The notes beneath the pieces are model-generated. The model made no database searches. It was not told the DNA's origin and worked only from the letters and a program-made list of their open reading frames with translations. From an uncultured Pseudomonadales bacterium (lineage in GTDB: Bacteria > Patescibacteriota > Microgenomatia > UBA1400 > MFAQ01): a DNA stretch of 57,483 nt. Of the stretch, positions 31,961 to 57,267 are shown in pieces. Positions within the stretch are counted from its first letter, which is position 1. Every line of letters begins with the position of its first letter. Both the position numbers and the translations under genes were made by a program. The stretch is from the NCBI GenBank assembly GCA_964513845.1, contig CAZENT010000006.1, positions 1 to 57,483 on the forward strand. Direction: 5' to 3'.

Positions 31961-32069
31961 AAAAATATTGCGCAAAGCCCAAAAGCCTTGTTTCTTGGGT
32001 AATCCCAAGAATTTTGGGCTGCGAGTAATGGATGGCTTTCGTGCAGGGCGAAAGAGCATCCGGTTTTTG
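31961..32069 (+). repeat. Structured dispersed repeat E1 (family: 35045-35360, 39335-39591, 55504-55630, 55646-55904, 57068-57267)
   Basis: Shared modules CCGCAGTACTTCGTCCTTATGAGGAAGTTACGCAAAGCC and AATATTGCGCAAAGCC...GGCTG; compensatory changes between copies. Confidence 0.85.
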
Positions 32070-32189
32070 AAAAGGTATAAGGCGGTAGGTCGGGTGATGA
32101 GGGAAATAAAATTTAGGAAGAGAAAATGGGAAAAATGATCAAAGCACCAGGTCAGGTTGAGGTAAACCATATACTTGATATAATGATAG

Positions 32190-33509
32190 TTGATGACAAA
32201 AAATCCTAAAGGCAAACGCATTATCATCAACATCCTGATTCTCATGTTCCTCATTGGAGGCACAGCTATGGCTATCCTGTACGCCAAAGGCTATCGCCCA
32301 AATATCAAAGAGGGCTCGCTTCAGGGCTCAGGGCTTCTCAATGTTACGTCTTACCCCAAATCAGCCAGAGTTATCATCAACGACAAGCTCACCACAGTCA
32401 CCGACGACAAGCTCTATCTTTACCCAGGAACATACAACATCAAGATCGAAAAGGATGGCTTTCACCCTTGGACCAAGTCTGTTCCTCTCAAGTCCGAGTT
32501 GGTTTCCAACGCCGACGCTCGCCTCTTCCCAATAATCAACGCCACTTCACCCCTCACTTTCTACCAAGCCAGCAACGCTTCTTTAAACCCAGACGGCACC
32601 AAAATCGCCTACGTTCTCACCAAATCCCCGGTTGAAACCGCCAATGGCCTCTATATTCACTCTCTTTCCGGCAACTTCCTAGGCTCACAGTATGTCCAAA
32701 TCACCGACAACACCACCAAAGACTTTACCAAAGCTCTTCTCATCTGGTCACCGGACAGCACTCAAATACTTGCTGTTTTCTCGGAAAAAACCAAAACCGC
32801 CGAAAGGATTACTTCTGCCGTACTTCTTTCCACCAAAGGCATGAATAACATCAAAACCATCTCCGATGCCACCCTTCGTCTTCCTCTAATCATTTCTCAA
32901 TGGCAAGGCGAGTACGCCAAAATCAATCTCCCCAACATCGCGCTCTATCCAAAATATCTAGCTGACATTCTTTCCAACAAGGCTGTCAACGTCTTTTTCT
33001 CTCCCGACAAAGAAAAGGTTTTCTACACTGCCACTTCAGATACGAATCTTCCGGAAAATGAAATCGGCAAATCCCTCCCCAACATCAACGCCACTCCGGA
33101 AACCAGAAATCTTCTCAAGGACAAATCCTATGTTTTTGACCTCAAAGAAGGCACCAACTACGCCCTTCCCGCCGCCTCAGCCTCAGCCACAACCAAGAAA
33201 ATCATCATTACAGCCGCCGATGCCACTCCTTCTGCTAGTATTGCCACACTCAAACAGCTCAAAGCTCAAACAGAAAGCTACACCGTTGGCAATCTCTCTT
33301 GGTACTCCAACTCTCGCCAGCTAGTTGTTACCGGTTCCGAAGGTGTAAACATCGTTGACTACGATGGCCTAAACATGACCAACATTACTTCTGTTCAACC
33401 CTTGAATGGCTTTGCAGTCAGCAACTCGGACAGCAGTCGCTTAATTCTTCTGACGAACATCAATCAAAAAGCCGACACTTACAATCTCATCTCTTTTGAT
33501 TTAAAGTAG
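32190..33509 (+). CDS. PEGA-domain membrane-anchored protein with TolB-like repeats
   Basis: N-terminal TM, GLLNVTSYPKSARVIIN...LYPGTYNIKIEKDGF PEGA pattern; WSPDS and FSPDK repeats. Confidence 0.85.
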   Translation: MMTKNPKGKRIIINILILMFLIGGTAMAILYAKGYRPNIKEGSLQGSGLLNVTSYPKSARVIINDKLTTVTDDKLYLYPGTYNIKIEKDGFHPWTKSVPLKSELVSNADARLFPIINATSPLTFYQASNASLNPDGTKIAYVLTKSPVETANGLYIHSLSGNFLGSQYVQITDNTTKDFTKALLIWSPDSTQILAVFSEKTKTAERITSAVLLSTKGMNNIKTISDATLRLPLIISQWQGEYAKINLPNIALYPKYLADILSNKAVNVFFSPDKEKVFYTATSDTNLPENEIGKSLPNINATPETRNLLKDKSYVFDLKEGTNYALPAASASATTKKIIITAADATPSASIATLKQLKAQTESYTVGNLSWYSNSRQLVVTGSEGVNIVDYDGLNMTNITSVQPLNGFAVSNSDSSRLILLTNINQKADTYNLISFDLK

Positions 33510-34149
33510 CCTTCATTTTTGTCCAAACGGTAATCGCTTGCGCATAGTCATCGATATAGTAGATGGTGATCTGTCCTCGCTTCCAGCCACACTCATGATC
33601 GAAGTCGGATTTATGGCAAATCAGCCGATGGTCATTAGTATAATAGTCGGCTACAGCCATCCTTTGTTTACCCATCAATTTTGAATCCTCCACCATCGAT
33701 AGTTCAGAAAATGTCGGCTCTTCATAGCTGTCAACAATCTCCTTTTCCGCCTTTGATTTTCCATTGTCCGGCGGTTTGGATCCATAATACTCTGGCATCA
33801 ACATCATTATTTGATATCTCCCCTTGCACAGCACCAGGTTATACTCCCATTTATTTAACGACTTGTATTTGCCATCATACTCACAAATTTCATCCAAAAA
33901 AAATGCCGAAGAATATACCTCTTTCTTTTGTTTAATAATCTCCACCAAATCACTAGCCTGTGCTTCGATTCTATAAAAGGAATCACTGTCAAAAGGCACC
34001 TTCAGCATACTCTCAGCCAACATTGTTCCCATCATGGTTAACTCTGCATCGCGAAAAAACCAGCCCAAAATCACCGCCTCTCCGGCAGTCATATCCATCC
34101 AGTTTTTTGGACCAAGATCGTCGACCAAATCATAACTCTCTTTACTCAT
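33487..34149 (-). CDS. Hypothetical protein (220 aa)
   Basis: Long ORF; no recognised domain. Confidence 0.65.
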   Translation of the reverse strand: MSKESYDLVDDLGPKNWMDMTAGEAVILGWFFRDAELTMMGTMLAESMLKVPFDSDSFYRIEAQASDLVEIIKQKKEVYSSAFFLDEICEYDGKYKSLNKWEYNLVLCKGRYQIMMLMPEYYGSKPPDNGKSKAEKEIVDSYEEPTFSELSMVEDSKLMGKQRMAVADYYTNDHRLICHKSDFDHECGWKRGQITIYYIDDYAQAITVWTKMKATLNQKR

Positions 34150-34192
34150 TGAACAGATATTATCATGGGCCAGGATGTAAAATATATTGATT

Positions 34193-34266
34193 GCTGATGT
34201 AGCTCAGTTGGATAGAGCATCTCACTCCTAACGAGAAGGTCCCCAGTTCGACTCTGGGCATCAGCA
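34193..34266 (+). tRNA. tRNA-Arg(CCT)
   Basis: Full cloverleaf GCTGATG...CATCAGCA, anticodon loop CT-CCT-AA, TTCGACT T-loop. Confidence 0.92.
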
Positions 34267-34283
34267 CAAAACACTAAAACCAT

Positions 34284-34358
34284 TGGTCGGGGTGCGGAGA
34301 ATTGAACTCCGTGTCTCTTCGTCCCGAACGAAGCGTGATACCGATTCACTACACCCCG
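34284..34358 (-). tRNA. tRNA-Pro(CGG)
   Basis: CGGGGTG...CACCCCGACCA cloverleaf, loop TT-CGG-GA. Confidence 0.95.
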
Positions 34359-34397
34359 GATTGCTTACAAATGTATTTTACAGTGAAGAGTAGTTTT

Positions 34398-35003
34398 TTA
34401 CTTCTTACCCTGCCACTCCATGGAATACAAGATTTTGTCGATTGCCATGTCGTAGTCCACGATTTCCTCTTTTTTAAACCAGATTTCTATCTCAGTTTCC
34501 GCTTCTTCAACTGAACCGGAGGCGTGAACTAAGTTTCTGATTGCTCTTTCATCTGCGTCTGCCACAAAATACGAGTCGATAGTATAGTCACCCGTAATGG
34601 TGCCTATATCAGCCCCCAAAGGATTTGTTGCTCCACGAATTTTTCTGACATGAGCAATTGCATGAGCACCTTCGATCACCATTGCGATAACTGGGCCTAC
34701 CACCAAATACTCAAAAAGTCGAGTTTGAATGTCACGAGCAATATCCATTGGATCAGAAAATTTGTGTTTCAAACCCTTTTCAGCATAACTAGCCAAGGTT
34801 CTATTTCCCAAAAGCAACATGGCATCTTTTGGCTGATCGTAGTGTTTCTTTGCCATTTCTCTGGTTGGCCAGATCATCTTCATTGCGGTAATCTTTAGAC
34901 CTTTTTTCTCAAATCGGGAAATTATTTCTCCCACTAAACCTCTCTGAACACCATCAGGCTTAATAAGCACAAGAGATCTTTCGTGAACAGTTGTTTTAAT
35001 CAT
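34398..35003 (-). CDS. ndk: Nucleoside diphosphate kinase
   Basis: ERSLVLIKPDGVQRGL and RNLVHASGS (catalytic His). Confidence 0.97.
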   Translation of the reverse strand: MIKTTVHERSLVLIKPDGVQRGLVGEIISRFEKKGLKITAMKMIWPTREMAKKHYDQPKDAMLLLGNRTLASYAEKGLKHKFSDPMDIARDIQTRLFEYLVVGPVIAMVIEGAHAIAHVRKIRGATNPLGADIGTITGDYTIDSYFVADADERAIRNLVHASGSVEEAETEIEIWFKKEEIVDYDMAIDKILYSMEWQGKK

Positions 35004-35044
35004 ATGCCTCCCATTTTACCCCACTCCAGTCAAAATTGGTCATC

Positions 35045-35360
35045 AATTTTCCCTTAATTTCCGCAGTACTTTGTCCTTATGAGGAAGTTACGCAAAGCCA
35101 TAAACTCAAATCTTGAATTTATTTTGTTTCTCGAAACATAAAGTCCGTAGTCTATTCCCTTTTTGGCAGGATTACGTAAAGTGCGTATGGCATGGTGTCA
35201 CTACTGTGACCATACGCACTGCGTATCAAGAAATTTCTACGCAGGAGAAATATTCTGGCTGCCCTGAAAAGGCGTGTAGACGGCAGGACTTCATAAAGAG
35301 AAACAAAACATGTGAGAAAAGAATTGGAATAATGGATGGCGGGTCTTAATTGGGGAAATT
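35045..35360 (+). repeat. Structured repeat E2
   Basis: Module CCGCAG...ACGCAAAGCC plus nested stems TTTGTTTCTC/GAGAAACAAA, AAGTCC/GGACTT, GTCTA/TAGAC. Confidence 0.75.
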
Positions 35361-35371
35361 AAATTTTTTGT

Positions 35372-35731
35372 TTAATAAACCGCCTGATAATGTTCCATCC
35401 TCTCAACCTCCCCTTTAGTATTTAACACAATCGCCACCACATCCACTCGACAACCAACAACAATCCCCTTGTCCTGCAAATACACCTCCCCCATTCTTTT
35501 TATTTTCCCAATTTTACTTTTATTTACCATTTCTTCCGGTTCCCCAAAATCATGACCTATTTTTGTTTTCACTTCCACAAAAACCAAAATTGGCCCGTCA
35601 TAACAAATAATATCAATTTCACCAAAACGAGTACGAAAATTACGCTCAACAATCAAAAATCTTTTGTTTACCAGATACTCCGCCGCCAACTCTTCCCCCT
35701 TGTTTCCGGTAATTTTATTATTACTTTTCAT
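35372..35731 (-). CDS. yraN: YraN (UPF0102) PD-(D/E)xK nuclease
   Basis: GNKGEELAAEYL, RNFRTRFGEIDII, LVFVEVK, CRVDVVAI. Confidence 0.93.
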   Translation of the reverse strand: MKSNNKITGNKGEELAAEYLVNKRFLIVERNFRTRFGEIDIICYDGPILVFVEVKTKIGHDFGEPEEMVNKSKIGKIKRMGEVYLQDKGIVVGCRVDVVAIVLNTKGEVERMEHYQAVY

Positions 35732-35795
35732 TATTTTTATATCCTGCTCATCAATTTAACCATAAAAACGGCGCCCCTTTCGGGGCGCCAAAAAC

Positions 35796-36137
35796 CTATC
35801 TCTTTGCCCATCCGAGCAATGTGTTGATCATAAATATCGCCAACTGCATTCGCTCGGAATCACGCAGATTGTCGATATTGCACATCAGAAACCCATCGTA
35901 ATGAAAAACATGAGTTTCTTCACCTTTTTCATTCAAATAAATGTCAAGTTCGCTATGGGGATTTGGTCCCCCAAAATCTGCAATACCCTTTGCCCCAACC
36001 AAATTACCGGTTGTTACGATCCGGAACTTATCATACTTTAGTTCACCCGCATCGCAACTAGCTATGAAGAGCAAAACGATTTTGTGAAACGGAACTTCAA
36101 CACTCTTCTTTCCACTATCATTTGATATTTTCACCAT
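35796..36137 (-). CDS. ORFan hypothetical protein (113 aa)
   Basis: SD GAGGAGG, promoter TTGACT-17-TATAAT, GGCGCCCC hairpin terminator. Confidence 0.7.
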   Translation of the reverse strand: MVKISNDSGKKSVEVPFHKIVLLFIASCDAGELKYDKFRIVTTGNLVGAKGIADFGGPNPHSELDIYLNEKGEETHVFHYDGFLMCNIDNLRDSERMQLAIFMINTLLGWAKR

Positions 36138-36222
36138 GCCTCCTCAAATTGAAAAAATTTTTAGCGTACTGTTATCGTCCACTATTATATATCTATATAG
36201 GATAAAAGTCAAACCTAGAAAC

Positions 36223-37743
36223 TCAAAACACTCTCTCGCGATACTGCAGTGCCTCCGCCAAATGTACCGACAGAATATCAGCACTCCCCTCCAAATCAGC
36301 GATTGTTCTAGCTACTTTTAACACTCGAAAATACGCCCTGGCCGACAAATCGAACTTCTCCATCGACAGTCGCAGAATCCTTACCCCGCCCAAATCCAGA
36401 CGACAAAACTCTTTCACCTGTTTGTTTTTCATTTGAGCATTACAAAAAATCCCAGTTTTTACAAATCTTTCACTTTGGATATTTCTCGCCTTCATTACTC
36501 TTTCACGGATAGAAAATGAGCTTTCTCCTTTTTCTACAGACCCAATTATTTTTTCCGCATCAACCGACGGAACATTTATATGTAAATCAATCCTATCCAA
36601 AATTGGCCCACTTATTCTTCTTTTATACCTCTCAACATCTCTTACTGTGCATTTACACTCATGAGTTGGATGATCCAAATAGCCACAAGGGCAAGGGTTC
36701 ACCGCCGCAACCAGCTGAAACGATGCCGGATAGGTTACTCTTCCTGCCGCCCTACTTATCTCCACTTTTCCATCCTCCATTGGCTGCCTCATAGCCTCCA
36801 AAACCAGTCTAGGAAACTCTGCCATCTCGTCCAAAAACAAAACTCCCAGATGTGAAAGGCTTACCTCTCCCGGTAATGGATGACTCCCTCCGCCCACAAG
36901 GCCAGCCAAACTTGTCGAATGATGAGGAGATCGAAATGGTCTGCGACGAATTACTGCCTCCCCTGGTTGCATCAGTCCTGCCGCCGAGTAAATTCTGGTA
37001 ACTTCCATCGTTTCTTCCTCGGTTAGCATTGGCATTATGCCGGGCAAAGCTCTTGAGAGCATTGTTTTACCTGAACCTGGAGGGCCGGACATTAGAATAT
37101 TGTGTCCTCCTGCCGCCGCAATCGATAGCGCTCTCTTGGCAGTTTCTTGTCCCACAATTTCAGCCATATCAAAATCCGGGGGCGCAGCCTCAATCAAGCT
37201 CTTTATCGCAATTGTTTTCAAAGATTTGATTAGCTTTATTCCTCGTAAATGTTCCACCAAGTCTTTTAAGCCTCTCACCGGAAACACTTCCACCCCAGAA
37301 ACCACCGCCGCTTCATTAGCCGACATAATCGGCACAAATATTCGGCTCACGCCCACTCTTTTGGCAAAAATGGCCAAAAGCAAAGCGCCTTTTGTGTGAC
37401 GCAAGCTACCATCCAGGGATAGCTCACCAAAAAATATTCCCGATTCTTTCAGTTCGATATCTCCATTGGCCACCAAAATTCCAATAGCAATCGGCAAATC
37501 ATAAGCCGAGCCTTCCTTTGGCAAATCTGCTGGAGCTAAATTTACCGTAATTTTCTTTTGAGGAAAAGCAAAACCGCAATTTACCAGAGCCGTTCTCACT
37601 CGTTCTCTCGCCTCACCCACAGCTTTGTCCGGCAAACCAACGATATTGAAACCGGGGAATCCTTTTTCGGCCACATCAACCTCAACATCAACCGGAAAAC
37701 TTTCCAAACCAACACAAGCTACGCTCTTTATGCAGGCAAGCAT
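36223..37743 (-). CDS. comM: ComM/YifB Mg-chelatase-like AAA+ ATPase
   Basis: VGLPDKAVGEARERV, NLAPADLPKEG, GPPGSGKT, RPFRSPHH, LFLDE; start at ATG 37743 six nt after TGnCATACT. Confidence 0.95.
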   Translation of the reverse strand: MLACIKSVACVGLESFPVDVEVDVAEKGFPGFNIVGLPDKAVGEARERVRTALVNCGFAFPQKKITVNLAPADLPKEGSAYDLPIAIGILVANGDIELKESGIFFGELSLDGSLRHTKGALLLAIFAKRVGVSRIFVPIMSANEAAVVSGVEVFPVRGLKDLVEHLRGIKLIKSLKTIAIKSLIEAAPPDFDMAEIVGQETAKRALSIAAAGGHNILMSGPPGSGKTMLSRALPGIMPMLTEEETMEVTRIYSAAGLMQPGEAVIRRRPFRSPHHSTSLAGLVGGGSHPLPGEVSLSHLGVLFLDEMAEFPRLVLEAMRQPMEDGKVEISRAAGRVTYPASFQLVAAVNPCPCGYLDHPTHECKCTVRDVERYKRRISGPILDRIDLHINVPSVDAEKIIGSVEKGESSFSIRERVMKARNIQSERFVKTGIFCNAQMKNKQVKEFCRLDLGGVRILRLSMEKFDLSARAYFRVLKVARTIADLEGSADILSVHLAEALQYRERVF

Positions 37744-37815
37744 ACTCTCAGTATGCCACAAATCTTGCCACAAAAAACCCGCCTTATTTCTAAGACGGGT
37801 GATTTCAAAACAAAA

Positions 37816-38355: not shown

Positions 38356-38432
38356 TTGAGCCTCCTCAAAAAGAATTTTATTGTACGGGCATATAATACC
38401 ACATTTTGAGCCAAAAATCACTAAATATAGGC

Positions 38433-39278: not shown

Positions 39279-39334
39279 AATTCATTTTACTGTTGTTTCT
39301 ATAAACAAAAAAGCCCGCATTCCACTCAAACACC

Positions 39335-39591
39335 ATGTCGAAGTTAAATATTTCTCTTTCCGTTTGGCATTTAGTTCTTTTGACAATGAGTTGCATGTCC
39401 TAAATATAAAAACAATATTTTCCTTAAATTCCCCGCAGTACTTCGTCCTTATGAGGAAGTTACGCAAAGCCAAAAAAGCCTGGTCTTTTTGTAATCAAAA
39501 AGTTTTTGGCTGTGTAATAGGCTGCGATTTGCGCAGGCAAATCGACATGGCCGGTCCTCAGAAGGATAAGTACGAGAGGAATTAGGAAAAT
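39335..39591 (+). repeat. Structured repeat E3 (near-duplicate of E5, 55646-55904)
   Basis: Long imperfect terminal stem TTTCCT/AGGAAA, AATTCC/GGAATT, GTACTT/AAGTAC, TGAGGA/TCCTCA. Confidence 0.85.
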
Positions 39592-39695
39592 CACCCAAGC
39601 GGCAGGTCTAGTAATGGGGGAAATGAAAAATCAAGCACTAAGAAATATATAGAAAAATACGGAAAAAATAATTAAAATGGAATATACTATAAATA

Positions 39696-40202: not shown

Positions 40203-40211
40203 AATGTCCAT

Positions 40212-42176: not shown

Positions 42177-42194
42177 AAACTAAAATTAGCTATA

Positions 42195-42225
42195 AAAATA
42201 CCCCGCACAGGCGGGGTATTTTTTT
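42195..42225. terminator. Bidirectional terminator between the TPR gene and tRNA-Ala
   Basis: AAAAATACCCCGC-ACAG-GCGGGGTATTTTTTT. Confidence 0.8.
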
Positions 42226-42230
42226 ATTTG

Positions 42231-42301
42231 TGGACCTGGAGGGAATTGAACCCTCTTCTCGCCCATGCCATGGGCACATTCTACCGGTGAACTACAGGCC
42301 C
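42231..42301 (-). tRNA. tRNA-Ala(GGC)
   Basis: GGGCCTG/CAGGTCC acceptor with G3:U70; loop AT-GGC-AT. Confidence 0.92.
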
Positions 42302-42399
42302 TCGAAGTTATAAAAAATCTTCAACAAAGCTGATTATAAATCATACTAGCCAGAGATTCCAGCTCCGAATGATCATATTATTGCTAAAATATATCTACT

Positions 42400-46764: not shown

Positions 46765-46786
46765 GACGCTTTTATTATCATACCCG

Positions 46787-49700
46787 TTACTGACCTCCAG
46801 CTAAACCCCCTAAAAATCCGAAGGCTTGAGAAAGATTGCCCACAACCAGGTTCAAAGCGCTTTGTGTTGCTTTTGGTGTGATTACAACCGTATCGATCGA
46901 CTCGGCCACATTTGCGCCAAGATCGGCCGAAACAGCTTTCAAGCGATACACTTTTGAGGGAACTAAATTCTGGATAACCACAAGATGGGTATATACCGGC
47001 GCAGAATCAACCTGAGTTTTGTTGGCTAACGCTCCAGTTGAGCCCTCTCCGTATACCACCTGAGAGCTTGCCAACTCATCTGTTTCCCAAGACACAATTA
47101 GCTGTGCCCTTGCCTCCTCACCAGTGCCCTGAATTGACATCTCAGTGTTCATATTACTAATCTGAGGAGGTCTGGTATCAGAAGCCGTTGTGAAAATTTG
47201 CGACTCAGAAATAGCCTCGTTTCCGCCCTTATCTCTACCCTTAACGATCAAAGTGTAAGGAGCGTTGGCGATCAAACCTTTGATGATCATCTTGTGAGCC
47301 TTGGTCATCTTGATATCCACACTATCCTTAACCATCGAAGGGCTAGCGGAAGGATAATAAGTTACGATAGAAGATACTTCTGTGTTTGAAGACCAGGTAA
47401 TGAGCATGGTACTGGTCGCGGCACCCTTTACTTGTTGCAACTTTACGTTTGTCACTTTTGGTCTAGGTAAAGTTTCAAAAGAATAAATATCACCCGGATA
47501 CACTGCTCCATCAACATCAAACAAATCAACACGATAGTAGTATTTAGTTCCATCTTCAAGTCCTTCAAGATACACACCATAAGTGGCTTCTGTGGGTGAT
47601 ATTGCCAGCTCAGCAGTGCCACCAAAAGATGTCGATTTCCCATACAATACCGAAACCTTTTCAGCACCAGATGAAGTGAAGTTGATTGTTGCTTTATCTA
47701 GGCCCACGCTTGTTGCTTTGACCTCTTTTGCAGAAGGTGCAGGACTGGTACTAAAACTATTCTCATCACTAATGCCCAGATTACCATCCTCATCAGTCCA
47801 TTTTGCCACATAATAATACGTAGTTCCTGGAGCCAAGTTGGTAATCGTCAACACATGGCTAATCGCTTGGTCAGAGTTTCCCACTTCAGTGTCGATGTAT
47901 TTTCCGGGCTCTGTGCCGTAAGCAATCTTAGAATCGGAGGTTCTATTGGTTGTCCAGCTAATGGTTGCTTTTTTTGTTGTTACATTTGAAGCCATAGGTT
48001 CATCCACAAGGTCGGCCGGCAAAATAAATTTGCCGTCCGGGTACTGCTCCACAATCGAGCCAAAAGCTCCGCAGTTGTTGGCGCTGTCGCAAGCCTTCAC
48101 CTTGTACTGATATGTAAGCTGTGACAAGCCTGTGTCTACATACGATATACCAGCCGTTGAAGCCACTTTGGTAAATGTCGCTCCAGCATCACTGGATCTC
48201 CAAATCTGATAACTCGCCACGTTATCCCCGCCCTCACTTGGCTGTTGCCAGGTAATGGCAATCTTCCAAGCCTTGGTGGCTTTAACCGACACATCTGCAA
48301 TATCCATGTTCTCTGGCATACCTGGGGCTGGTGTATTGGCATAAAAAGTTGCTGTCGCATACTGTTTGAAATCAATATTACCCGCTTCATCTTTGGCCAC
48401 AACATAGAAAGTATTTTCACCCGGTAAAGTTGCATAAGGTCCTGGTATTAAGTGAGTTAGCGCAGTTTCTTGAACATTTGCAATCGAAGGAAGAGCGTTC
48501 ACGCTATAGAAATATCGAAGATTGCTGATATTGCCATAGTAAACCTCAGGCGCAGACCAAGAAAATTCGAAGGAGTTGGTTGCTGAAGTTTCCGGAGACA
48601 CAGACAAGCTCTTCGGAGGCGACGGTGAATCATCATTGAAATAATATGACACTGTTGAGGTCGGACTAAAATTACCCGCATTGTCTTTGGCGCGAAGATA
48701 GAATGTGTTAGCGCCTTTTTTGTATGAAGGCACATCTGTAATTGTTAACTCTGTTGTACATCTTTCTGTCGCGAAATCTCCAGTTGACGCGCCTGTCTTG
48801 TAACAATAACCCGCGATGCCTGAAGCACTGTCTGTCGCAATACCCCATGAGAAAGAAAATCGATCAACAGCAGAGTAGCCAGAAGGGTCTGCCGAAAGAT
48901 CATCGGGCTGTGTTGGCGCTCTGTTATCAAATTTATAGACAAATGGTCTCCAAATATTTTCATTGACATTCCCTGCTTCATCTTTTGTGGTCAGGGCAAA
49001 ATAGTATGTCTCTCCGGAAACAAGACCGGATGTCACCATATTATTTTCTTCTTGGAAATAACTTTCAACTACAGGATTACCGCTATCTGTTGCAAACATG
49101 GCTGCGTAATACCCTAAAACACCTGAGCCGGTTGCTGTGTCTGTAGCTCCACTCTCAGATCCTTCCTCCGGCCATGTAATATCTATAGCGGGATATGGAT
49201 ACCAATTATTTGACTGGATTTGAGCCGAGTTTGTGGCTGTACTATATACTTTCAAACCCTCGTCGGATGGGTTTTCTGGCGCGGTTGTGTCTTGAATATA
49301 GTTAATTGTGTAGTCAGAAACAACTCCCGATCCAATACCTCTCAACGAAGTTAAACCTATCTTAATCTGAATATAAGGATTTACTGGTGATGATATCTTG
49401 TACTCATATGTCGTGTTGTTCAATATTTTGAGAGAATTTGCACTTACCCAAGAAGACCATGTTTCCGCATCAGCAGACGAACGGGTATAAACCGAAATAC
49501 TTGAGTCGTTAGCACTAGAATACGTTAATCTCAAATTACTCCATTTATAAACGTCACCAACAAAATGTGCCCCTGAAATGAACTCTCCGCTTTCTTCAAA
49601 ACTAGCCGTTGTGGATGGTATTACATAGGTATAAACACCGTCTCCAAAAGTAGCCGTTCCGTTCCCGGCTAACAAATACAGTCTTCCATCTCCACCGTTA

Positions 49701-52700
49701 ACCATTCCACCACCTGATGTCACGTTAGCCGGTAATCGTGGCATAACCTCCCAAGTATTATTTGCAATTGAGTATCTTAAGAAATGATATGAGTTTTCAC
49801 CTTTTACAAAATATAAATATCCATCGCGACCGTCTGCCAAAGCAGCACCGTAATACGCTCGATATGTTGTTGAAGGTAAATCGGCCACAAGAGGGTCTGA
49901 CCAAGTATTAGCAGCCACATCATATCGATAAAAACTCAAAGTGGCATCTCCTCTGGTCGCGTAGATATATCCATCTTTATAGACCAATGACGCACTATTC
50001 CCCGCATAGGGGATGTTTGCCATTGTGCTCCAACGTGATCCTGAATTCGCTAAGTAGTCGTAACGATAAAAAGATGATCCACCTCCTCTCGTCCAATAAA
50101 GGTACCTACTTCCGTCAAAAGTCAAGGTTGATCCGTACTGGTTAGGTAAAGCCGGTGGATTATCATCCTCAGACCACGTATTGGTTGCGATATCGTATAC
50201 AAATAATTTTTGCCAATAACTTGATACAAAATATATTTTATTGTTTACACTGTTGTACTCAATATTTTGACCAAACATCGAACCGCTTGGAAGTGGAGAT
50301 AAATTGATAATCTCTCCTGTTACCTTGTTGTAACGAACAAAATTATTTGAATAATTACCTTTTGTCAGATATAAATAATCTCCGTCACCTCTTATGATTG
50401 AACCACCATAACTTGGCATATCATAAGAAGAACCATAAAAGTTCTTTCCAAACAAACCACTCGTTGGAATCTGCCAATAATCTGTGGCAATATCATATTT
50501 CCAAACCAGCTGTGAATTGCCACCCGCGGTTACCATTAAACTTCCACCAATATTTCTAATATCTGAACCGTAACTAATTCCTGCTGGAGCATCGCTTAGA
50601 GCAATCCATGTTTGCGTGTTTATATCAAACTTAAAAAAGTCAGGCGTACCAACCCCAGAAGTGTAATAAACAGCGTTGCTATCTTGATCAAAGTAGATTG
50701 AACTACCAGATCCTGCAATTGTGGGAAGGTCAGTTAATACTGTCCATTGATCGTTTGTTATTGAGTATGAAGAGAAACTTGGCTGTGAGTATCCTTGAAT
50801 TGAGTAGATTGTGTCATTCCCATCATAAGTTAAATCACCACCATCATAGACTAAGTTATTTGATGCTTGATCAGGAGCTCCGTAATCTGTGTTATCTAGT
50901 GTCGCCCAAGTATCTGTTGTGGTGTCGTAAGACCAAAAAGTATCATCAGCGTTACCTCGAGTCACATAAATATATCGACTGCCGTCATATATCATACTAC
51001 TTCCGTAATGTATTGTATTTGGAGCGTCAGCCATATCTTCCCAAGTATTATTGACAATTGAATAGCGCATAAAACCAGCCGTATTATTTCCTCTTAAGGC
51101 GAAAAGAAATCCTTCTGGTCCTTCAATTACTCCTCCGCCCATGTAAACACTACCTCCAGAACCAGCCAGTTGAGTCCAAGTATCACTTCCAAAATCATAT
51201 TCGTAAAAGTTTGTACTATTGTTCCCTTGGAAAGTATAAAGTTTATTTGTGCTGGCGATATATGCCATAGTTCGAGCACCGTAAGAAATTCCGACGGGTG
51301 AAATCGAAAGTCTATCTTGAAGCCATATTCCATTTGATTTACCCGCCAGCTTAATTTCATCACCATCAACATTAATATTTGTTGCACTTCCCGTAGCAAA
51401 TTCTGTCGTCAAACTTGCCGTAGAAGTTTTCTCGGCCGGAATTCCACTGTAAATATAGTTAAAGGCATTTAAACTACTAGATACATTTCCAGAAGTGTCT
51501 TTTGTCTTAATTAACAAATAGTAACTTCCAGCACTAAGAGGCTCGGTCACTGTGTAGTTTGAAGTCGTCTGCCAAGTACCTGAATCAACCGGGTTGGCGC
51601 TACTCGAGTTACCAAAATACACATAATACCCCGCTACTTCAGTATCTGAATCAGAAGCTCCAGTCCAAGAAAAATACGGACTTGTAAACGAATATGTTTG
51701 GCCACTAACTAAATTCACGCCAGCCACTTCTGTCGACTTTGCCGTAAGATTCGTAGGATTTGAAGGGGCTATTGTATCCCCAGCATAATTAATTGCTATA
51801 GATTCAACAATTGGAGTATCTGTGTTGTCAGTGGTTGAGTTTATACCTACTTTTACCTGAATATATCTTGCGACCGGTGACTGAATACTATCTCCTGACG
51901 TTAATTGCCAACTGGACCAAACCAACTTGTCAGAACTTGTTCTTGTCGAGTATGTGACCATACTATCTCCTGGTGTAGACTCAACGGTATCAAGGCTACT
52001 CCAAGCTGTAACATATCCAAGATCAATTACCCCACTTGTCCATATTCCGGCATCAACATAATTGTCTGAACTTTGTGAATATTTTAAAACGTACTGAGTA
52101 CTTCCTCCTCTGATGATATATATTCCTCCATTACCATCAGATTTTACCGAACCACCCTCATGGGTTCCCCATCCAGCTGAACCCATTGTTGGCATATCTG
52201 TCAACCTTCTCCAGGAATCCGAGGTAATTGTGTATTCGAACAGTTCTTTATCGTAATTTCCAGGAATAGCGATAAATTTTCCATGACCATCATAAACCAT
52301 ATCCGACCCTGACATTGGTGCAAATGGCAACCTAGAAAGAGTACTCCAAGTGTTTGTTGCTATAGTATATTTTTGAAAATTTGATACACCCAGTCCTGGA
52401 ACTAAATATAGATCCGTTCCGTCAGAGACAAAAGCAGTTCCACTGCCAGCATATACTTCAGACTGTAAATCTGCGACGGCAGCGTCATCCCAAGAATTAC
52501 CACTAATACTATATCTCCAAGTTGTTGCTGTTCCACTTCCACGAACAGAGTAAATAAAATCACCACTTCCTGGATATGCTAATGCACCATCACTGACAGT
52601 TGCGGGAGTAACTGTCAAAGTAGTCCAGGTATTCGAACTAATCGTGTATTTTTGAAACTGAGTCGTCGCTGCCGAACCGCCCATCATATAAATCTCGCCA

Positions 52701-54064
52701 TTGGCAAGTACACCGTGAGTATATTGATTAAAAGTCTGATTTCCCGAAGGTGAATCTGCTAGCTGTGACCAAACACCAGAAGCAATATCATAGACATACA
52801 AGTTCCTCGTATTTACACCTCGAATTGTATATATTTTCCCTTGATAATAAAAACTATCTCCTCCTCTGCCCACCGTCACCGTTGAACCGTTGACAACTAA
52901 ATCTGAAGCTCCCAAGAAACTGTTTGAATCAATATCATATCTCCAAATATCTGTCGTACCACTTCCTCGGAAAACATAAATTAAATCATCACTAGCGTTG
53001 TACACCACACCTCCGTTCGACACCCGTATCGGCGTATCCTCTAAAGTTGTCCAAGTATTACCTTCAAGGTCATATCGATAAAAATTTCTTGTACTGCCGT
53101 TTCGAGTGAGATATAAATAATTTCCTTTTATCGTCCAGTTTGGATTGTATTCCGTCATTGTTCCTGGAACATTAGCCATTCTCGTCATCACCCCGTCACT
53201 TATTCGATAACGATACCAAGTAGTTATTGATCCTGACGTGTTGTACAAGTGGAATAAATAACCATTATGGTAAATCAAACCACCATAGTTATTTGCATAA
53301 GTAAATGGCTTCATGGCAGACCAAATGTTCGTCGCAATAGAATATTTGTAAAGCTCAGTATTTCCACGGGTTGCATATATGTACTCCCCATCGGTCGCCA
53401 TATGTGCTGAACTGACTAACTCTGGAAGATTATTCAGCCGGGTCCAAGAGTCTGTTGAAATTGTGTATTTATAAAAAACATCTTGATTGGCTCCAAAAAG
53501 AACATAAATATTCCCGTTGACATAAATCATGTTTCCTCCAGAAACTGAATATGGAGCAGGAGTTAAGTTTCTCCATTCATCGTTTTGAGGTAGATATCGA
53601 TAAAATTCATTATCTCCAGAACCCCTAAGTACATAAACATATTGACCATCAGATACATATGTGCCAGGCGAACCCAAACCCCATTCAGGCGCCTCAATCA
53701 CTCGAGGTTCCCAAGTACCATCTGCAGTCAATCGAAGGTTGTCGAAGCTTGAATTAGACTCGACAAGGTTATACTCACCTGCCTGCCAATCAACTGAGGT
53801 GCTTAGCGTCCTACTGCTAGCCTTTGCTTGAAAAAACTCACCCCACAAATCTTCAGTAAAACCATAGGGTACTAGTAAATTTAGAACGATTCCAAAGATA
53901 AATATTTTCTTGACAGCGACCCTGCAACCACGCCCAAAAACACTCTTCCTGAAATTCTTTCTGTCCGCTAGTGTTTTCAATTTATGTGCAGGCATAAACG
54001 CAATCATTAAGCTGGCAAAAACCAACCGTGATTTCAGTTTATACTTATATAATAAGGAAAACAA
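46787..54064 (-). CDS. Giant surface protein with Kelch propellers and Fn3/Ig-like domains
   Basis: 2425-aa ORF; many YxxxGG...YDxxxxxW Kelch repeats in two blocks; PSNPT, PTQP and PSPP-initiated Fn3 modules; exact start uncertain. Confidence 0.88.
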   Translation of the reverse strand: MFSLLYKYKLKSRLVFASLMIAFMPAHKLKTLADRKNFRKSVFGRGCRVAVKKIFIFGIVLNLLVPYGFTEDLWGEFFQAKASSRTLSTSVDWQAGEYNLVESNSSFDNLRLTADGTWEPRVIEAPEWGLGSPGTYVSDGQYVYVLRGSGDNEFYRYLPQNDEWRNLTPAPYSVSGGNMIYVNGNIYVLFGANQDVFYKYTISTDSWTRLNNLPELVSSAHMATDGEYIYATRGNTELYKYSIATNIWSAMKPFTYANNYGGLIYHNGYLFHLYNTSGSITTWYRYRISDGVMTRMANVPGTMTEYNPNWTIKGNYLYLTRNGSTRNFYRYDLEGNTWTTLEDTPIRVSNGGVVYNASDDLIYVFRGSGTTDIWRYDIDSNSFLGASDLVVNGSTVTVGRGGDSFYYQGKIYTIRGVNTRNLYVYDIASGVWSQLADSPSGNQTFNQYTHGVLANGEIYMMGGSAATTQFQKYTISSNTWTTLTVTPATVSDGALAYPGSGDFIYSVRGSGTATTWRYSISGNSWDDAAVADLQSEVYAGSGTAFVSDGTDLYLVPGLGVSNFQKYTIATNTWSTLSRLPFAPMSGSDMVYDGHGKFIAIPGNYDKELFEYTITSDSWRRLTDMPTMGSAGWGTHEGGSVKSDGNGGIYIIRGGSTQYVLKYSQSSDNYVDAGIWTSGVIDLGYVTAWSSLDTVESTPGDSMVTYSTRTSSDKLVWSSWQLTSGDSIQSPVARYIQVKVGINSTTDNTDTPIVESIAINYAGDTIAPSNPTNLTAKSTEVAGVNLVSGQTYSFTSPYFSWTGASDSDTEVAGYYVYFGNSSSANPVDSGTWQTTSNYTVTEPLSAGSYYLLIKTKDTSGNVSSSLNAFNYIYSGIPAEKTSTASLTTEFATGSATNINVDGDEIKLAGKSNGIWLQDRLSISPVGISYGARTMAYIASTNKLYTFQGNNSTNFYEYDFGSDTWTQLAGSGGSVYMGGGVIEGPEGFLFALRGNNTAGFMRYSIVNNTWEDMADAPNTIHYGSSMIYDGSRYIYVTRGNADDTFWSYDTTTDTWATLDNTDYGAPDQASNNLVYDGGDLTYDGNDTIYSIQGYSQPSFSSYSITNDQWTVLTDLPTIAGSGSSIYFDQDSNAVYYTSGVGTPDFFKFDINTQTWIALSDAPAGISYGSDIRNIGGSLMVTAGGNSQLVWKYDIATDYWQIPTSGLFGKNFYGSSYDMPSYGGSIIRGDGDYLYLTKGNYSNNFVRYNKVTGEIINLSPLPSGSMFGQNIEYNSVNNKIYFVSSYWQKLFVYDIATNTWSEDDNPPALPNQYGSTLTFDGSRYLYWTRGGGSSFYRYDYLANSGSRWSTMANIPYAGNSASLVYKDGYIYATRGDATLSFYRYDVAANTWSDPLVADLPSTTYRAYYGAALADGRDGYLYFVKGENSYHFLRYSIANNTWEVMPRLPANVTSGGGMVNGGDGRLYLLAGNGTATFGDGVYTYVIPSTTASFEESGEFISGAHFVGDVYKWSNLRLTYSSANDSSISVYTRSSADAETWSSWVSANSLKILNNTTYEYKISSPVNPYIQIKIGLTSLRGIGSGVVSDYTINYIQDTTAPENPSDEGLKVYSTATNSAQIQSNNWYPYPAIDITWPEEGSESGATDTATGSGVLGYYAAMFATDSGNPVVESYFQEENNMVTSGLVSGETYYFALTTKDEAGNVNENIWRPFVYKFDNRAPTQPDDLSADPSGYSAVDRFSFSWGIATDSASGIAGYCYKTGASTGDFATERCTTELTITDVPSYKKGANTFYLRAKDNAGNFSPTSTVSYYFNDDSPSPPKSLSVSPETSATNSFEFSWSAPEVYYGNISNLRYFYSVNALPSIANVQETALTHLIPGPYATLPGENTFYVVAKDEAGNIDFKQYATATFYANTPAPGMPENMDIADVSVKATKAWKIAITWQQPSEGGDNVASYQIWRSSDAGATFTKVASTAGISYVDTGLSQLTYQYKVKACDSANNCGAFGSIVEQYPDGKFILPADLVDEPMASNVTTKKATISWTTNRTSDSKIAYGTEPGKYIDTEVGNSDQAISHVLTITNLAPGTTYYYVAKWTDEDGNLGISDENSFSTSPAPSAKEVKATSVGLDKATINFTSSGAEKVSVLYGKSTSFGGTAELAISPTEATYGVYLEGLEDGTKYYYRVDLFDVDGAVYPGDIYSFETLPRPKVTNVKLQQVKGAATSTMLITWSSNTEVSSIVTYYPSASPSMVKDSVDIKMTKAHKMIIKGLIANAPYTLIVKGRDKGGNEAISESQIFTTASDTRPPQISNMNTEMSIQGTGEEARAQLIVSWETDELASSQVVYGEGSTGALANKTQVDSAPVYTHLVVIQNLVPSKVYRLKAVSADLGANVAESIDTVVITPKATQSALNLVVGNLSQAFGFLGGLAGGQ

Positions 54065-54118
54065 TACTCAGTTCGTGCCCAAATCTGTAACTTTTTTGAT
54101 AATAAAATACTGGGTAAC

Positions 54119-55393
54119 TTATAAGGAAAAATTCAGCTTCTTATAGTCCCCAACTACCGCTATTGAAAGATTTCCCTTTTTGAATATCTCTGAAGCTAAC
54201 GACCTTATATCATCCATTGTCACCTTTTCGATTCTATCCATAATTTCCTCAGGACTAAATATTTTTTTTCGAAAAAGTGTATCTTCCAGAGCATTTCCAA
54301 GCACTTCCTCTGGCTTGTCAAAAGCTAAAGCCAGTCTGCCTCGAAAACAGTCTTTTGCCACTTTTAGCTCTTCATCTTTAATTGCCCAAACGTTGCCACC
54401 TGCCAATCCAAGACTAATTTCTGTGATTAGTTCCACCGCTTCATTTAGTTTATTTTTTGGCAGACCAGCTCCAACCATCACGCTTCCGGCATCTGTAAAT
54501 TGATCAATTCCCGAACCAATGGCATATGCCCAACCTCTTTCCTCACGGACTTCTCTCATCAAACGAGACATCCAACCATCTCCATAAATTATATTTAACA
54601 ATTCCAAAGTAAACCTACGTTCATCTGTCATCTTAATGCCTCTAAATGCCATGTAAACAGCTGCCTGCTCCACTTTACGGCTCACTAACTTAACTTTTGG
54701 CTTCTCTTGTTTGTCCCAAGAAAATCTATCTTTCTTTGGTAAGGCTCTCTTGTCATCAATAAGAGGAGTAAATTCTTTTTTTATCAAATCCAACATTTCG
54801 GCGTCAGTTCCGTATTTCCCCACGACACCCACGACAATATTTTCTCCTGTAAACCATTTTTCAAAATACTTGCGTAAGCTTTCTACTGTCATCGCCTTCA
54901 AACTTTTCACTGTGCCGATAATTGGTCTGCCCATGTTTGTATTTCCGTATAACAGCTTCTCACACTCCTCGGCTGCTTTACTATTTGGTCGGTCCTCATA
55001 CATGTAGAGCTCTTCTAAAATTGTGCCTCTTTCCTTACCAAAATGCTCTTTGGGAAGAACAGGCTCTGTTACCACCTGGCCCACAATCTCAGTCGCCAAA
55101 GCCACATGCCCCTTGTCCATCTTTACCCAAAAACCCATCTCGTTCTGACCAGTATAGGCATTAAAGGCCCCGCCAACCTTTTCTACAGCCTCATTGATAT
55201 CAAACACCTTGGGAAATTTTCTGGTTCCTTTAAACACGAAATGTTCCAAAAAATGAGCCGAACCGGCCTCTTTATCAGTTTCCTCTCGCGAACCCGTGCC
55301 TATCATCACCCGTACTGTGACCGACTCTCTTTCTTCAGGAACCAGTACCACTCTTAATTTACCCAACTTATATGTTTTTGGTGAAAATCTCAT
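54119..55393 (-). CDS. M16 (pitrilysin/insulinase) family peptidase
   Basis: GSAHFLEH (HxxEH), NAYT, SRLMREVREERGWAY. Confidence 0.94.
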   Translation of the reverse strand: MRFSPKTYKLGKLRVVLVPEERESVTVRVMIGTGSREETDKEAGSAHFLEHFVFKGTRKFPKVFDINEAVEKVGGAFNAYTGQNEMGFWVKMDKGHVALATEIVGQVVTEPVLPKEHFGKERGTILEELYMYEDRPNSKAAEECEKLLYGNTNMGRPIIGTVKSLKAMTVESLRKYFEKWFTGENIVVGVVGKYGTDAEMLDLIKKEFTPLIDDKRALPKKDRFSWDKQEKPKVKLVSRKVEQAAVYMAFRGIKMTDERRFTLELLNIIYGDGWMSRLMREVREERGWAYAIGSGIDQFTDAGSVMVGAGLPKNKLNEAVELITEISLGLAGGNVWAIKDEELKVAKDCFRGRLALAFDKPEEVLGNALEDTLFRKKIFSPEEIMDRIEKVTMDDIRSLASEIFKKGNLSIAVVGDYKKLNFSL

Positions 55394-55503
55394 GCCTCAA
55401 TTGTACTGCCTACCATATCCCTTTGCGAAGTTAAATTTTTCTACAGTCTATTCCCTTTTCGAAATTCATCTCGTTCATTTTTCCCAAAATTCCATAGTGC
55501 TTG

Positions 55504-55904
55504 TCCAATTTAAAAAATATTGCGCAATATACAAAATTCCGCAGTACTTCGTCCTTACGAGGAAGTTACGCAAAGCCAAAAAGCTCAAATAAAAAAATTT
55601 TGTTTCTCAATAACACAAGTCCGTAGTCTAAATTCAAGCATTGTTATGTTGAAGTAAAGCAAATCTCCTTCCATTTGGCATTTAGTATTTTTGACAATGA
55701 GCCGCATGTCCGTAATTTTCTCCATTATTCATTTTCCCTTAAATTCCGCAGGACTTCGTCCTTATGAGGAAGTTACGCAAAGCCAAAAAAGCCTGGTCTT
55801 TTTGTAATCAAAAAGTTTTTGGCTGTGTAATAGGCTGCAGTTCGCGCTGGCGAACTGACATGGCCGGTCCTCAGAAGGACAAGTACGAGAGGAATCAGGA
55901 AAAT
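55504..55904 (+). repeat. Tandem structured repeats E4 and E5
   Basis: Two consecutive copies of the CCGCAG...ACGCAAAGCC module; E4 tail matches E2 and E5 matches E3. Confidence 0.85.
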
Positions 55905-55991
55905 GATCACAGGCAACAAATCTAATAAGAGAAAAACTTTTTGAGAACAAAGAAAAGGGGCTTGGTTCATCACCTCGCCCCTTGTCTCTTT

Positions 55992-56040
55992 ACGAAACGA
56001 ACACGAACAACTAACACGAACGGACCACGAACACGAACAC
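55992..56040. repeat. Degenerate (ACGAAC)n short-unit tract
   Basis: ACGAAACGAACACGAACAACTAACACGAACGGACCACGAACACGAACAC. Confidence 0.7.
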
Positions 56041-56208
56041 TTGCAATGTGCAAACAAACTTATTTAGTCGTTGCAACCTGATCAGGGCTATTGAGAGTAA
56101 ACTCTTGAACGTCTTCAAGTCACTTTTCAATCAAGGCAACCAACTAACAAGGATGTTCTTAGCATCCTCATCCATAGTAATAGATATTTTTCTAAACTTC
56201 AAGCCCCC

Positions 56209-56985
56209 TCACTTCTCTGTAAAAACTTTGATCTCACCGGCATCAAAAAACACCTCAACACTTCCAGAGTAATCAGTTCTCAACACTTTCGCTTTAACTC
56301 TATCTAACCGTATCAAAGTATCACTGTTAGGGTGGCCAAAGGTGTTTTTTGCTCCAACAGATACAATGGCTATTTTTGGGCTCAGCTTCTCCAAAAACGG
56401 ATTAGTCGAACTGTATTTAGACCCGTGATGAGGCACTTTTAAAACAGTCGTCTTTTTTAGCACTCCCTCATTAAATAGTGCCAACTCCGTCTTCTCGCCT
56501 ATGTCTGCCGTAAATAAAGCCGAAAAATCAAAATACTTCACCAGCAATACCATCGAGTCTTCATTTTCCTCTTTTGAGCTACTTGAGGCCAATTGTTCTT
56601 TCTGTTCGTTTCCCATTAATATATCAAAATACAAATCTTTATATCGATACGCATCATTCTTTCTCGCAAACTCCACTACCTTATCGATTTTGTACCGAAA
56701 GGCCAGCCCTTTCAAGGCTCCGTTGTGATCCGCCTGTGGATGGCTGATAAATACCAGATTAATGCGTCGATCCCAAAAGGGCATCTCCTTGCTCAAACAG
56801 GTAAACAGTTTCGACTCACTCGGGCCAGTGTCGATCAGGGCTTGAAATGAACCCAAGACAACCAACGCTGCATCCCCCTGCCCCACATCGCAAAATACTA
56901 CTCGAAGCTTCCCGTCCGGCCACTGTTGCCACACCCAAACCAGGCTCAGTAAAACAATAACTACCATCCATCTTTTCCAGTTCAC
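56209..56985 (-). CDS. ComEC/Rec2 metallo-beta-lactamase domain protein
   Basis: FCDVGQGDA, LIDTG, SHPQADH, LFTADIG, LKVPHHGS, FGHP. Confidence 0.92.
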   Translation of the reverse strand: MNWKRWMVVIVLLSLVWVWQQWPDGKLRVVFCDVGQGDAALVVLGSFQALIDTGPSESKLFTCLSKEMPFWDRRINLVFISHPQADHNGALKGLAFRYKIDKVVEFARKNDAYRYKDLYFDILMGNEQKEQLASSSSKEENEDSMVLLVKYFDFSALFTADIGEKTELALFNEGVLKKTTVLKVPHHGSKYSSTNPFLEKLSPKIAIVSVGAKNTFGHPNSDTLIRLDRVKAKVLRTDYSGSVEVFFDAGEIKVFTEK

Positions 56986-57067
56986 AATCCATCTTACAGC
57001 TCTCCACCAATAGGTTCTTTTTGTATTTCTAAAAAGGCAAATCCGAAAGCTATTATCTTCTCAAATA

Positions 57068-57267
57068 TTTTCCATTACATTCCGCAACGCTTTGTCCTTA
57101 TGAGGAAGTTATGAAATATGTAAATATATTTATAGTTTCGAAGTGCGTATCCAATTTAAAAAATATTGCGCAAAGCCAAAAAGCCCGGTTTCTTGAGTAG
57201 TCTCAAGAATTTTTGGCTGCAAGTAATGGATGGCTTTTGCGCAGGGCAAAAGAGCATCCGGTTTTTT
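57068..57267 (+). repeat. Structured repeat E6
   Basis: 57159-57267 aligns with E1 without gaps; 5' part carries the GTCCTTATGAGGAAGTT module. Confidence 0.85.

Follow-up and report, generated by a model that had tools for sequence, protein, structure and literature searches.

A strand-polarized family of covarying structured repeats, possibly mobile or recombining, in a Candidatus Collierbacteria chromosome

The stretch of DNA analyzed here, hereafter the window, comprises 57,483 nucleotides (nt) of the forward strand of contig CAZENT010000006.1 (assembly GCA_964513845.1) and carries, between 31.9 and 57.3 kb, a family of intergenic repeats whose copies we call E1 to E6. The copies share one covarying fold on a single strand, differ in presence and type between close strains, and match no known RNA family. 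The closest database homologues of the mreB product (30860-31867, minus strand) are 87-95% identical to it and several are named Candidatus (Ca.) Collierbacteria; the window is therefore, as judged from sequence homology, a chromosome segment of Ca. Collierbacteria, within the Candidate Phyla Radiation (CPR)/Patescibacteria, a group with tiny genomes and little noncoding DNA. GC skew is negative over the whole window, and between 30 and 57 kb the majority of genes lie on the minus strand. The minus-strand genes mreB, ndk, and dprA, together with those for an M16 peptidase and a metallo-β-lactamase (MBL)-fold hydrolase, have their starts next to elements, and every element cluster either adjoins a minus-strand gene start or lies between two minus-strand genes. 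On the + strand, a PEGA-domain gene lies downstream of E1 and a hypothetical gene (168 aa) downstream of E3; yraN and comM are located between the ndk and dprA loci. The copies and accompanying features are listed below, where bits are covariance model scores, D numbers denote repeats from the repeat search, and P2 is a hairpin of the fold.

31906..32147, + strand: E1, full type I copy (rod at about 31938-32091; three-way-junction core 31955-32075; 140.9 bits)
35046..35104, + strand: 3'-truncated type II copy, 5' of the E2 core, running from the left arm to the P2 5' strand and ending in ...ACGCAAAGCCATAAAC (D3)
35122..35308, + strand: E2, full type III copy (core 35159-35272; 27.9 bits with model R1)
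39335..39405, + strand: TTGACA module upstream of E3 (repeat D18, 80%)
39417..39591, + strand: E3, full type II rod (core 39447-39566; 59.3 bits with R1)
39592..39632, + strand: remnant like the type I outer right arm (CAAGCGGCAGGTCTAGTAATGGGGGAAATGAAAA, against AAGGCGGTAGGTCGGGTGATGAGGGAAATAAAA in E1; alignment A1, columns 201-240)
55474..55630, + strand: E4, head-to-tail stack of three 3'-truncated copies (repeats D19, D3)
55474-55527, + strand: E4 part 1, type I, ending in TTGCGCAA and matched by positions 1025-1078 of the metagenome homologue L025 (against 55527-55474)
55534-55582, + strand: E4 part 2, type II, ending in ACGCAAAGCCAAAAAGC
55583-55630, + strand: E4 part 3, type III left arm
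55646..55716, + strand: second copy of the TTGACA module, before E5 (D18; BLAST 39335-39591 against 55646-55904, 86%)
55729..55906, + strand: E5, full type II rod (core 55760-55879; 59.5 bits with R1)
55957..55990, no strand assigned: GC hairpin GGGGC...GCCCC with T-rich tails on both strands, read from the sequence
57064..57111, + strand: E6a, 3'-truncated type II copy upstream of E6 (BLAST 39414-39462 against 57064-57111, 84%; D3)
57120..57303, + strand: E6, full type I rod (core 57153-57273; 139.8 bits)

A repeat search and a self-BLAST found the repeats at the coordinates given in the original prediction, which was made from the sequence alone. The repeat search paired 31957-32075 with 57155-57273 (D9, 88% identity) and 39433-39591 with 55746-55904 (D7, 94%), and returned a left-arm module in five copies (D3). 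Self-BLAST extended the E3/E5 match into the TTGACA modules (the 86% match listed above), and related the truncated copy at 35046-35104 to 39417-39476 (90%) and 55731-55789 (93%), and 35056-35154 to 55534-55630 (84%); no related sequence was found in the window outside 31.9-57.3 kb. A covariance model (R1) trained on four type I sequences only, namely E1, E6, and the metagenome homologues L025 and L029, was then applied to the window with filters off. It recovered E3 and E5 (E ~3e-14) as well as a core overlooked earlier, inside E2 (E = 2e-5), none of which was in the training set, and this recovery of types II and III by a type I-only model indicates a repeat family beyond chance. A second model (R2) gave no additional copy in the window, its first 31 kb included. 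The original claim of six copies, all intergenic and all on the + strand, holds for location and orientation, as no copy lies inside a gene. The number of full cores is five: E1 and E6 of type I, E3 and E5 of type II, and E2 of type III. E4, E6a, and the left portion of E2 consist of copies truncated at the 3' end, which are stacked upstream of full ones. Their breakpoints cluster at or just after a conserved CGCAAAGCC at the base of P2, a clustering that would be compatible with short-homology recombination or with template switching at a stable hairpin.

Each full copy forms a rod of ~155-200 nt tipped by a three-way junction. The 5' and 3' arms pair in a long imperfect stem with a recurrent 3x4 internal loop (5'-GNA on the 5' side, 5'-RRNA on the 3' side), which reads GAA/GGUA in E1, GAA/AGCA in E6, GAA/GGCA in L025, GUA/GGCA in L029 and E2, and GCA/GAGA in E3 and E5. 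At the tip, P1 runs on into P1b, with a small internal loop containing a conserved CGCAAAG; P2, of 9 pairs, is followed by a conserved bulge GC(C/A)U(G/U)GU and then by P2b, with 7-8 pairs and a 4-nt loop; and P3 has ~12 pairs and the loop (C)GCAGG(G). In each of the seven sequences, one hairpin loop reads UAAU, UAGU, or UACU and the other (C)GCAGG(G). Predicted energies are -72.4 kcal/mol for E1 (z = -6.0 for 31900-32160), -79.4 for E2 (z = -5.6), -72.3 for E3 (z = -7.2), -74.2 for E5 (z = -6.9), and -72.7 for E6 (z = -7.7), with z-scores against shuffles spanning -5.0 to -7.7 overall; the long closing stem proposed for E3 and E5 (~45 bp) is part of both predicted folds. Type I comprises E1, E6, L025, L029, and a partial copy in a further strain (L042). 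The three types have their architecture and loop sequences in common while almost all stem positions differ, and in E2 nearly all stem pairs are different from those of types I and II. The suggested AGCC/GGCT pseudoknot is unsupported, since its partner sequences are absent from type III; a pairing between the bulge and the P3 loop was likewise rejected, being 69% paired, without covariation, and disrupted by all variation. The right arm of E3 and E5 (39572-39583 and 55885-55896) contains AGUACGAGAGGA, a 12-nt identity with the sarcin-ricin loop of 23S/28S rRNA. We regard this likeness as a coincidence, as types I and III read UGCACGGCAGGA, UGCACAGCAGAA, and similar at that place.

The compensatory pairs quoted in the original prediction for E1 versus E6 and E3 versus E5 are all present in the sequence, and covariation proved strong across the family. 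In an alignment of seven sequences (A10), which was fitted to the covariance model and on which the pair counts rest, 31 of 46 core pairs are changed on both sides, and standard pairs fill 96.8% of cells, against 40.6-52.6% when partners are slid by one to three columns; none of 500 shuffles reached the observed pairing values. RNAalifold alone gives the same fold (49 pairs, 31 compensatory). Independent support comes from metagenome contigs in which paired positions change together: 39471C>G/39508G>C, 39485C>T/39502G>A, and 39487T>C/39500A>G in type II; 57195G>A/57204C>T and 57178A>G/57214T>C in E6; and 35238T>C/35246A>G in E2. Among paired cells on the + strand, 16 are G-U or U-G and none is A-C or C-A, and all seven full copies fold better on the + than on the minus strand, by 3-14 kcal/mol. 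The + strand is therefore the strand under selection for folding. Columns are invariant in 41% of unpaired as against 22% of paired positions, and loops more conserved than stems are typical of a molecule that is recognized when folded. Taken together, covariation, conserved loops, and strand asymmetry indicate that the entity being maintained is a folded single strand, most simply a + strand RNA, with single-stranded DNA (ssDNA) as a possible alternative.

The family matches no Rfam family and is undescribed in the literature that we searched. With Rfam 15 at the gathering threshold, the only matches in the window are four tRNAs, none of them on the elements; at E<=10, neither the 26 kb query nor queries of 261-321 nt gave a match on the elements, with Y_RNA, YrlA, and 6S included in the comparison, and the best Rfam scores over the elements were 10-15 bits, with miRNA and sRNA models. 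The literature search on CPR returned no noncoding RNA (ncRNA) or repeat family for Collierbacteria. A pattern scan of 185,579 species genomes (one per species, the window's lineage being absent) gave 10 matches, in unrelated phyla and without further similarity, where by our own estimate ~6 would be expected by chance. The metagenome scan yielded two true homologues only, L025 and L029. Among viral contigs, a 20-nt match within a phage open reading frame (ORF) was set aside as chance and no core was matched; BLAST against phages and plasmids found no matches to the elements. Six-frame translations of the elements, joined as one query and compared with the ORFs of other contigs, gave no matches, which argues against a conserved small protein.

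The family is widespread among wastewater, groundwater, and sediment samples, and is multi-copy, taxonomically narrow, and very dynamic. In run X1, from the sample matching the window, summed contig depth is 56-91 over type I/II parts and 7.4-7.8 over the flanks, and in a groundwater run (X4) it is 78-161 over type III and ~3-8 over the flanks; overall, summed metagenome depth over the elements is ~8-20 times that of single-copy flanks. Many element contigs continue into flanks unlike those of the window. Look-ups of window proteins returned mostly contigs that break inside repeats, which restricted the comparison of alleles over their full length. L025 is an ortholog of the E6 locus in which the element is conserved, at 90% over 152 aligned nt, against 79% over the 353-nt match that spans the element and the flanking gene, and we count this closer match as selection on the element. 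L029 covers the ndk-yraN locus in a relative whose genes are 73-82% identical, with a type I copy at the place of the window's type II fragment and type III copy. In relatives with MreB 88-95% identical, the mreB-PEGA spacers measure 34-130 nt, and in those with dprA on the contig (the 88-92% lineages) the spacer upstream of dprA measures 38-39 nt; R2 found no match in the mreB-PEGA and dprA loci searched in these relatives. The empty-site analysis called for by the original prediction was informative at E1: strain L036, with 97-98% identity to the window, has 20 unrelated nt (TCTCATTCATATCCGCGCGT) instead of 31906-32147 and no duplication, so that the entire 242-nt E1 segment is an indel, and run X21 carries the same E1-less allele. 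L042, of the same strain background as L036, loses all similarity to the window exactly at the start codon of dprA, and upstream of dprA has a truncated and a full type I copy instead of the TTGACA module and the type II copy E3. In other samples, the joints of contigs show the E6 locus with a type II right arm.

At 5-11 nt before the start codons, -10-like hexamers are seen for mreB (31880-31885), the PEGA gene (32179-32184), ndk (35013-35018), dprA (39284-39289), the M16 gene (55400-55405), and the MBL gene (56991-56996), all coordinates being approximate. This spacing places the elements upstream of the promoters of mreB, ndk, dprA, M16, and MBL, and suggests that the Collierbacteria genome may have leaderless or near-leaderless mRNAs, with promoters between gene and element. 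The elements would then fill gaps just outside promoters, which would be among the few insertion-tolerant places of a compact genome. The best promoter-like site of the PEGA gene, TTGAGG-16-TATAAT with a TG (32157-32184), falls downstream of E1 and 8 nt short of the ATG at 32193; it is outside the inserted E1 segment and conserved in the E1-less strain. As for the link to DNA-uptake genes that had been proposed, it does not hold and is coincidental, the neighbors being mreB, ndk, dprA, M16, MBL, PEGA, and a hypothetical gene.

Some hints of transcription come from public runs. In four wastewater runs labelled RNA-Seq/cDNA, contigs within 54.0-57.5 kb cover only E3/E5, at depths up to 36, and within 30-45 kb the same runs gave further only partial matches to tRNA-like sequence of other organisms. 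The RNA-Seq-labelled contigs cover 55729-55995 and not the flanking genes, and one of them (run X19) spans 55742-55995, ending just past the GC hairpin. This hairpin, seen after E5 only, received no score in the terminator scan, and may possibly form the 3' end of an E5 transcript, the terminator of the minus-strand MBL-fold gene, or both. At 55990-56040, about seven ACGAAC-like units (cgaaacgaacacgaacaactaacacgaacggaccacgaacacgaac) separate it from the MBL-fold stop codon. In a metatranscriptome (X22), a type I variant has a depth of 6.6, and contigs over mreB and PEGA have depths of 8 and 8.6. The ~70-nt module before both type II copies, in which TTGACA is followed 15-17 nt later by an A/T-rich hexamer, is multi-copy in metagenomes (depth 20-26 versus 3-10 in the flanks), and is a plausible candidate for a + strand promoter of the type II element.

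Many copies, stacked fragments, presence/absence and type swaps between strains, and absence in sister lineages point to a non-autonomous mobile or recombining element. With moderate confidence, we therefore read the elements as a family of small, non-autonomous, mobile or recombining structured ncRNA-type repeats of Ca. Collierbacteria. The feature under selection would be the + strand fold, kept in three subtypes despite stem turnover, and copies would be gained, lost, or replaced by other subtypes between close strains, piling up with 3'-truncated copies beside gene starts. Transcription of a full copy would most likely run along the + strand, pointing away from the neighboring minus-strand gene, and yield a small structured RNA, which would be recognized by a protein via its conserved loops. 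The RNA, or a ribonucleoprotein (RNP) containing it, would then serve the maintenance or spread of the element itself, or a function in trans, rather than control of the neighboring gene. We infer mobility here in preference to turnover driven by recombination.

Several observations weigh against this reading. A Pfam scan of ORFs of the 57-kb window turned up no transposase, integrase, or reverse transcriptase. The target-duplication analysis found no direct repeat at the flanks of E1, E3, E5, and L029, nor any target-site duplication (TSD) at the E1-less site. No flanking tetranucleotide is conserved (the left flanks end in CAAT, ATTC, ATCA, AACA, TATT, and AATC), and the terminal inverted repeats (TIRs) are weak, the complementary type II ends ATTTTCC...GGAAAAT being the base of the rod. 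Covariation this deep, combined with conserved loops, is unusual in a young selfish repeat and would equally fit a family of RNA genes useful to the host, and it rests on ~8 independent sequences in all, in an alignment fitted to the model. The -10 of the TTGACA module is poor, and the promoter scan gave the module no score. Finally, the RNA-Seq contigs are unstranded, and X18, a DNA run belonging to that study, likewise yielded contigs of the element only, so copy number alone could explain the RNA-Seq signal. The original interpretation is upheld in part. Its mobile ncRNA or miniature inverted-repeat transposable element (MITE) family agrees with the absence of an Rfam match, the strong covariation, the multiple copies, and the strain differences, although neither a TSD nor, in the window, a linked transposase was found, and its regulatory RNA, taken as a cis leader or riboswitch, is not supported.

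A rather unlikely, though substantial, alternative is that the elements are paralogous trans-acting small RNA (sRNA) genes useful to the host, encoding an RNP component or a protein sponge from their own promoters, and turned over by recombination, gene conversion, or imported DNA instead of transposition. Such genes would account for the covariation with conserved loops, for the + strand G-U asymmetry in a strand antisense to the neighbors, for the element of L025 being more conserved than the longer match with its flanking gene, and for the lack of a TSD and a transposase. The TTGACA module common to E3 and E5 and the hairpin 3' of E5, where the X19 contig ends, would also fit, and the conserved CGCAAAGCC at the breakpoints is a plausible short-homology crossover point. 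However, ~10 or more copies per genome-equivalent, many of them truncated, presence/absence at 97-98% strain identity, and sister lineages without copies at the same loci are more typical of selfish repeats.

A bolder version of the favored reading, which we consider doubtful, is that the elements represent a class of selfish structured RNA genes in CPR, whose only cargo would be their own fold and which would be moved by undescribed machinery. Each would be a small RNA with the rod and three-way-junction fold, recognized by some protein, and such genes would be copied or recombined into promoter-proximal gaps without target duplication, and 3'-truncated head-to-tail copies would result.

Alternatively, the + strand may fold as ssDNA and be processed by a rolling-circle enzyme or a transposase acting on single strands, as in IS200/IS605-derived palindrome-associated transposable elements (PATEs), REP/RAYT systems, or IS91/Helitron-like elements. 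This would explain the missing TIRs and TSDs, the strand polarity, including a single orientation for all copies while GC skew is uniformly negative across the window, and the head-to-tail 3'-truncated copies, which could arise by premature termination; DNA hairpins tolerate G-T pairs, so the asymmetry between G-U and A-C fits as well. We nevertheless judge it improbable. The fold, with its ~60-80 pairs, three-way junction, and conserved loops, far exceeds the known needs of such enzymes, no conserved target tetranucleotide was found at the copies, and no HUH enzyme lies within the window. IS200/IS605 elements use the lagging-strand template; should the leading strand be the one indicated by GC skew and gene direction, the strand that folds here would not be that template.

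It is highly improbable that the elements act on the minus strand, as REP/ERIC-like palindromes co-transcribed with the flanking minus-strand genes to stabilize or terminate their mRNAs. The location of all clusters beside a minus-strand gene start or between two such genes would suit this role, and folding remains good on the minus strand (-52 to -71 kcal/mol). On the other hand, the 16 G-U pairs of the + strand become 16 mismatches on the minus strand, the + strand is always the more stable, and the -10-like hexamers put the elements upstream of the neighbors' promoters.

Finally, a riboswitch or leader role for the elements is unlikely, and we give next to no credence to a cis-regulatory leader (for example c-di-GMP-I-like) of the downstream + strand gene, which is how the "regulatory RNA" of the original prediction could be understood: the three-helix junction with conserved junction bases, the location of E1 and E3 upstream of + strand genes, and a 10-mer, ACGCAAAGCC, that is found in GEMM-I as well, speak for it, whereas there is no match on the elements to RF01051 or any other Rfam model at E<=10, E1 and E3 are the only copies with a + strand gene downstream while the other three of the five (E2, E5, and E6) face convergent minus-strand genes, the PEGA promoter-like site lies downstream of E1, which is thus not the leader of that gene, the orthologous leaders of relatives, with their 34-130-nt spacers, are free of the element, and different subtypes occupy one locus.

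Other repeats and variable segments were noted in the window. A second, unrelated repeat family, at 16300-23000, consists of a ~200-nt cassette that precedes five or six small ORFs of the minus strand. In minus-strand orientation, the cassette has a GC hairpin with a T-run, an inverted repeat CCGTTTTGGGTATCC/GGATACTCAAAACGG, a CTCCGTCG...CGGCGGAG hairpin, and a AAAGGAGGG ribosome-binding site, and an AbiEii toxin ORF is found in this region at 18711-19331. The segment 23519-26500 (~3 kb, including an 854-aa ORF at 23946-26510) is strain-variable, corresponding to 8449-10270 (~1.8 kb) in L036. A minus-strand ORF at 27491-28336 contains seven copies of a 48-nt repeat (D2) at a spacing of 27-102 nt, and one of 2425 aa at 46787-54064, also on the minus strand, has dispersed internal repeats (D10, D12, D16).

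A complex fold that is kept through complete stem turnover, and yet is swapped between strains 97-98% identical, represents an unstudied form of strain-level genome change. The sequence immediately 5' of housekeeping genes, dprA and mreB among them, is rewritten in the process. The well-supported motif, with its 31 covarying pairs, would be useful for structural and protein-partner studies, and if the mechanism of mobility is new, the elements would add one more kind of bacterial mobile DNA.

Among known systems, the c-di-GMP-I riboswitch (GEMM-I, RF01051) is like the elements in the 10-mer and in two hairpins closed by a stem. However, the elements fail its covariance model, which gives no match even at E<=10, are not found in 5' leaders, and lack the GNRA tetraloop/receptor pair, as none of the hairpin loops of the seven sequences is GNRA. 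Integron attC sites similarly keep structure while sequence diverges, fold on one strand, and have a single orientation. Unlike their simple bulged hairpin, the elements have a three-way junction, and their neighbors are housekeeping genes with promoter-like sites of their own rather than cassettes; R''/L''-L'/R' boxes (RYYYAAC...GTTRRRY) were not seen at the element ends, nor was intI or another integrase found in the window. The conserved left-end tetra- or pentanucleotide of IS200/IS605 PATE or REP/RAYT systems is missing, as is a Y1 transposase in the window. With classical MITEs the elements share multiple copies and presence/absence between strains, without target-site duplications.

Y RNA/YrlA (with Rsr) and 6S RNA resemble the elements in having ends that pair in a long stem with a conserved internal loop and a multi-helix tip, and in paralogues that vary in their stems and keep their loops. 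They differ in that the elements have no Rfam match and the window has no rsr/TROVE gene, and truncated, stacked, strain-variable copies would be unusual for such RNAs. The covariation supporting a conserved fold is as would be seen for an independent sRNA gene. Lastly, the elements may be set beside ERIC/IRU of enterobacteria, BOX and RUP of Streptococcus pneumoniae, Correia/NEMIS of Neisseria, and REP/BIME, a likeness in general features. The elements are unlike them in the absence of a TSD, in weak terminal inverted repeats, in a three-way-junction tip with conserved loops, in subtypes linked only by covarying structure, in the CPR host, and in a folding strand antisense to the flanking genes, which makes co-transcription with these genes improbable. 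Nonetheless, like the members of these families, the elements are noncoding, intergenic, and multi-copy sequences of ~100-200 nt that form long imperfect hairpins and carry no enzyme of their own, and they are modular imperfect palindromes, mosaic with partial copies in the manner of BOX A/B/C, whose presence varies between strains.

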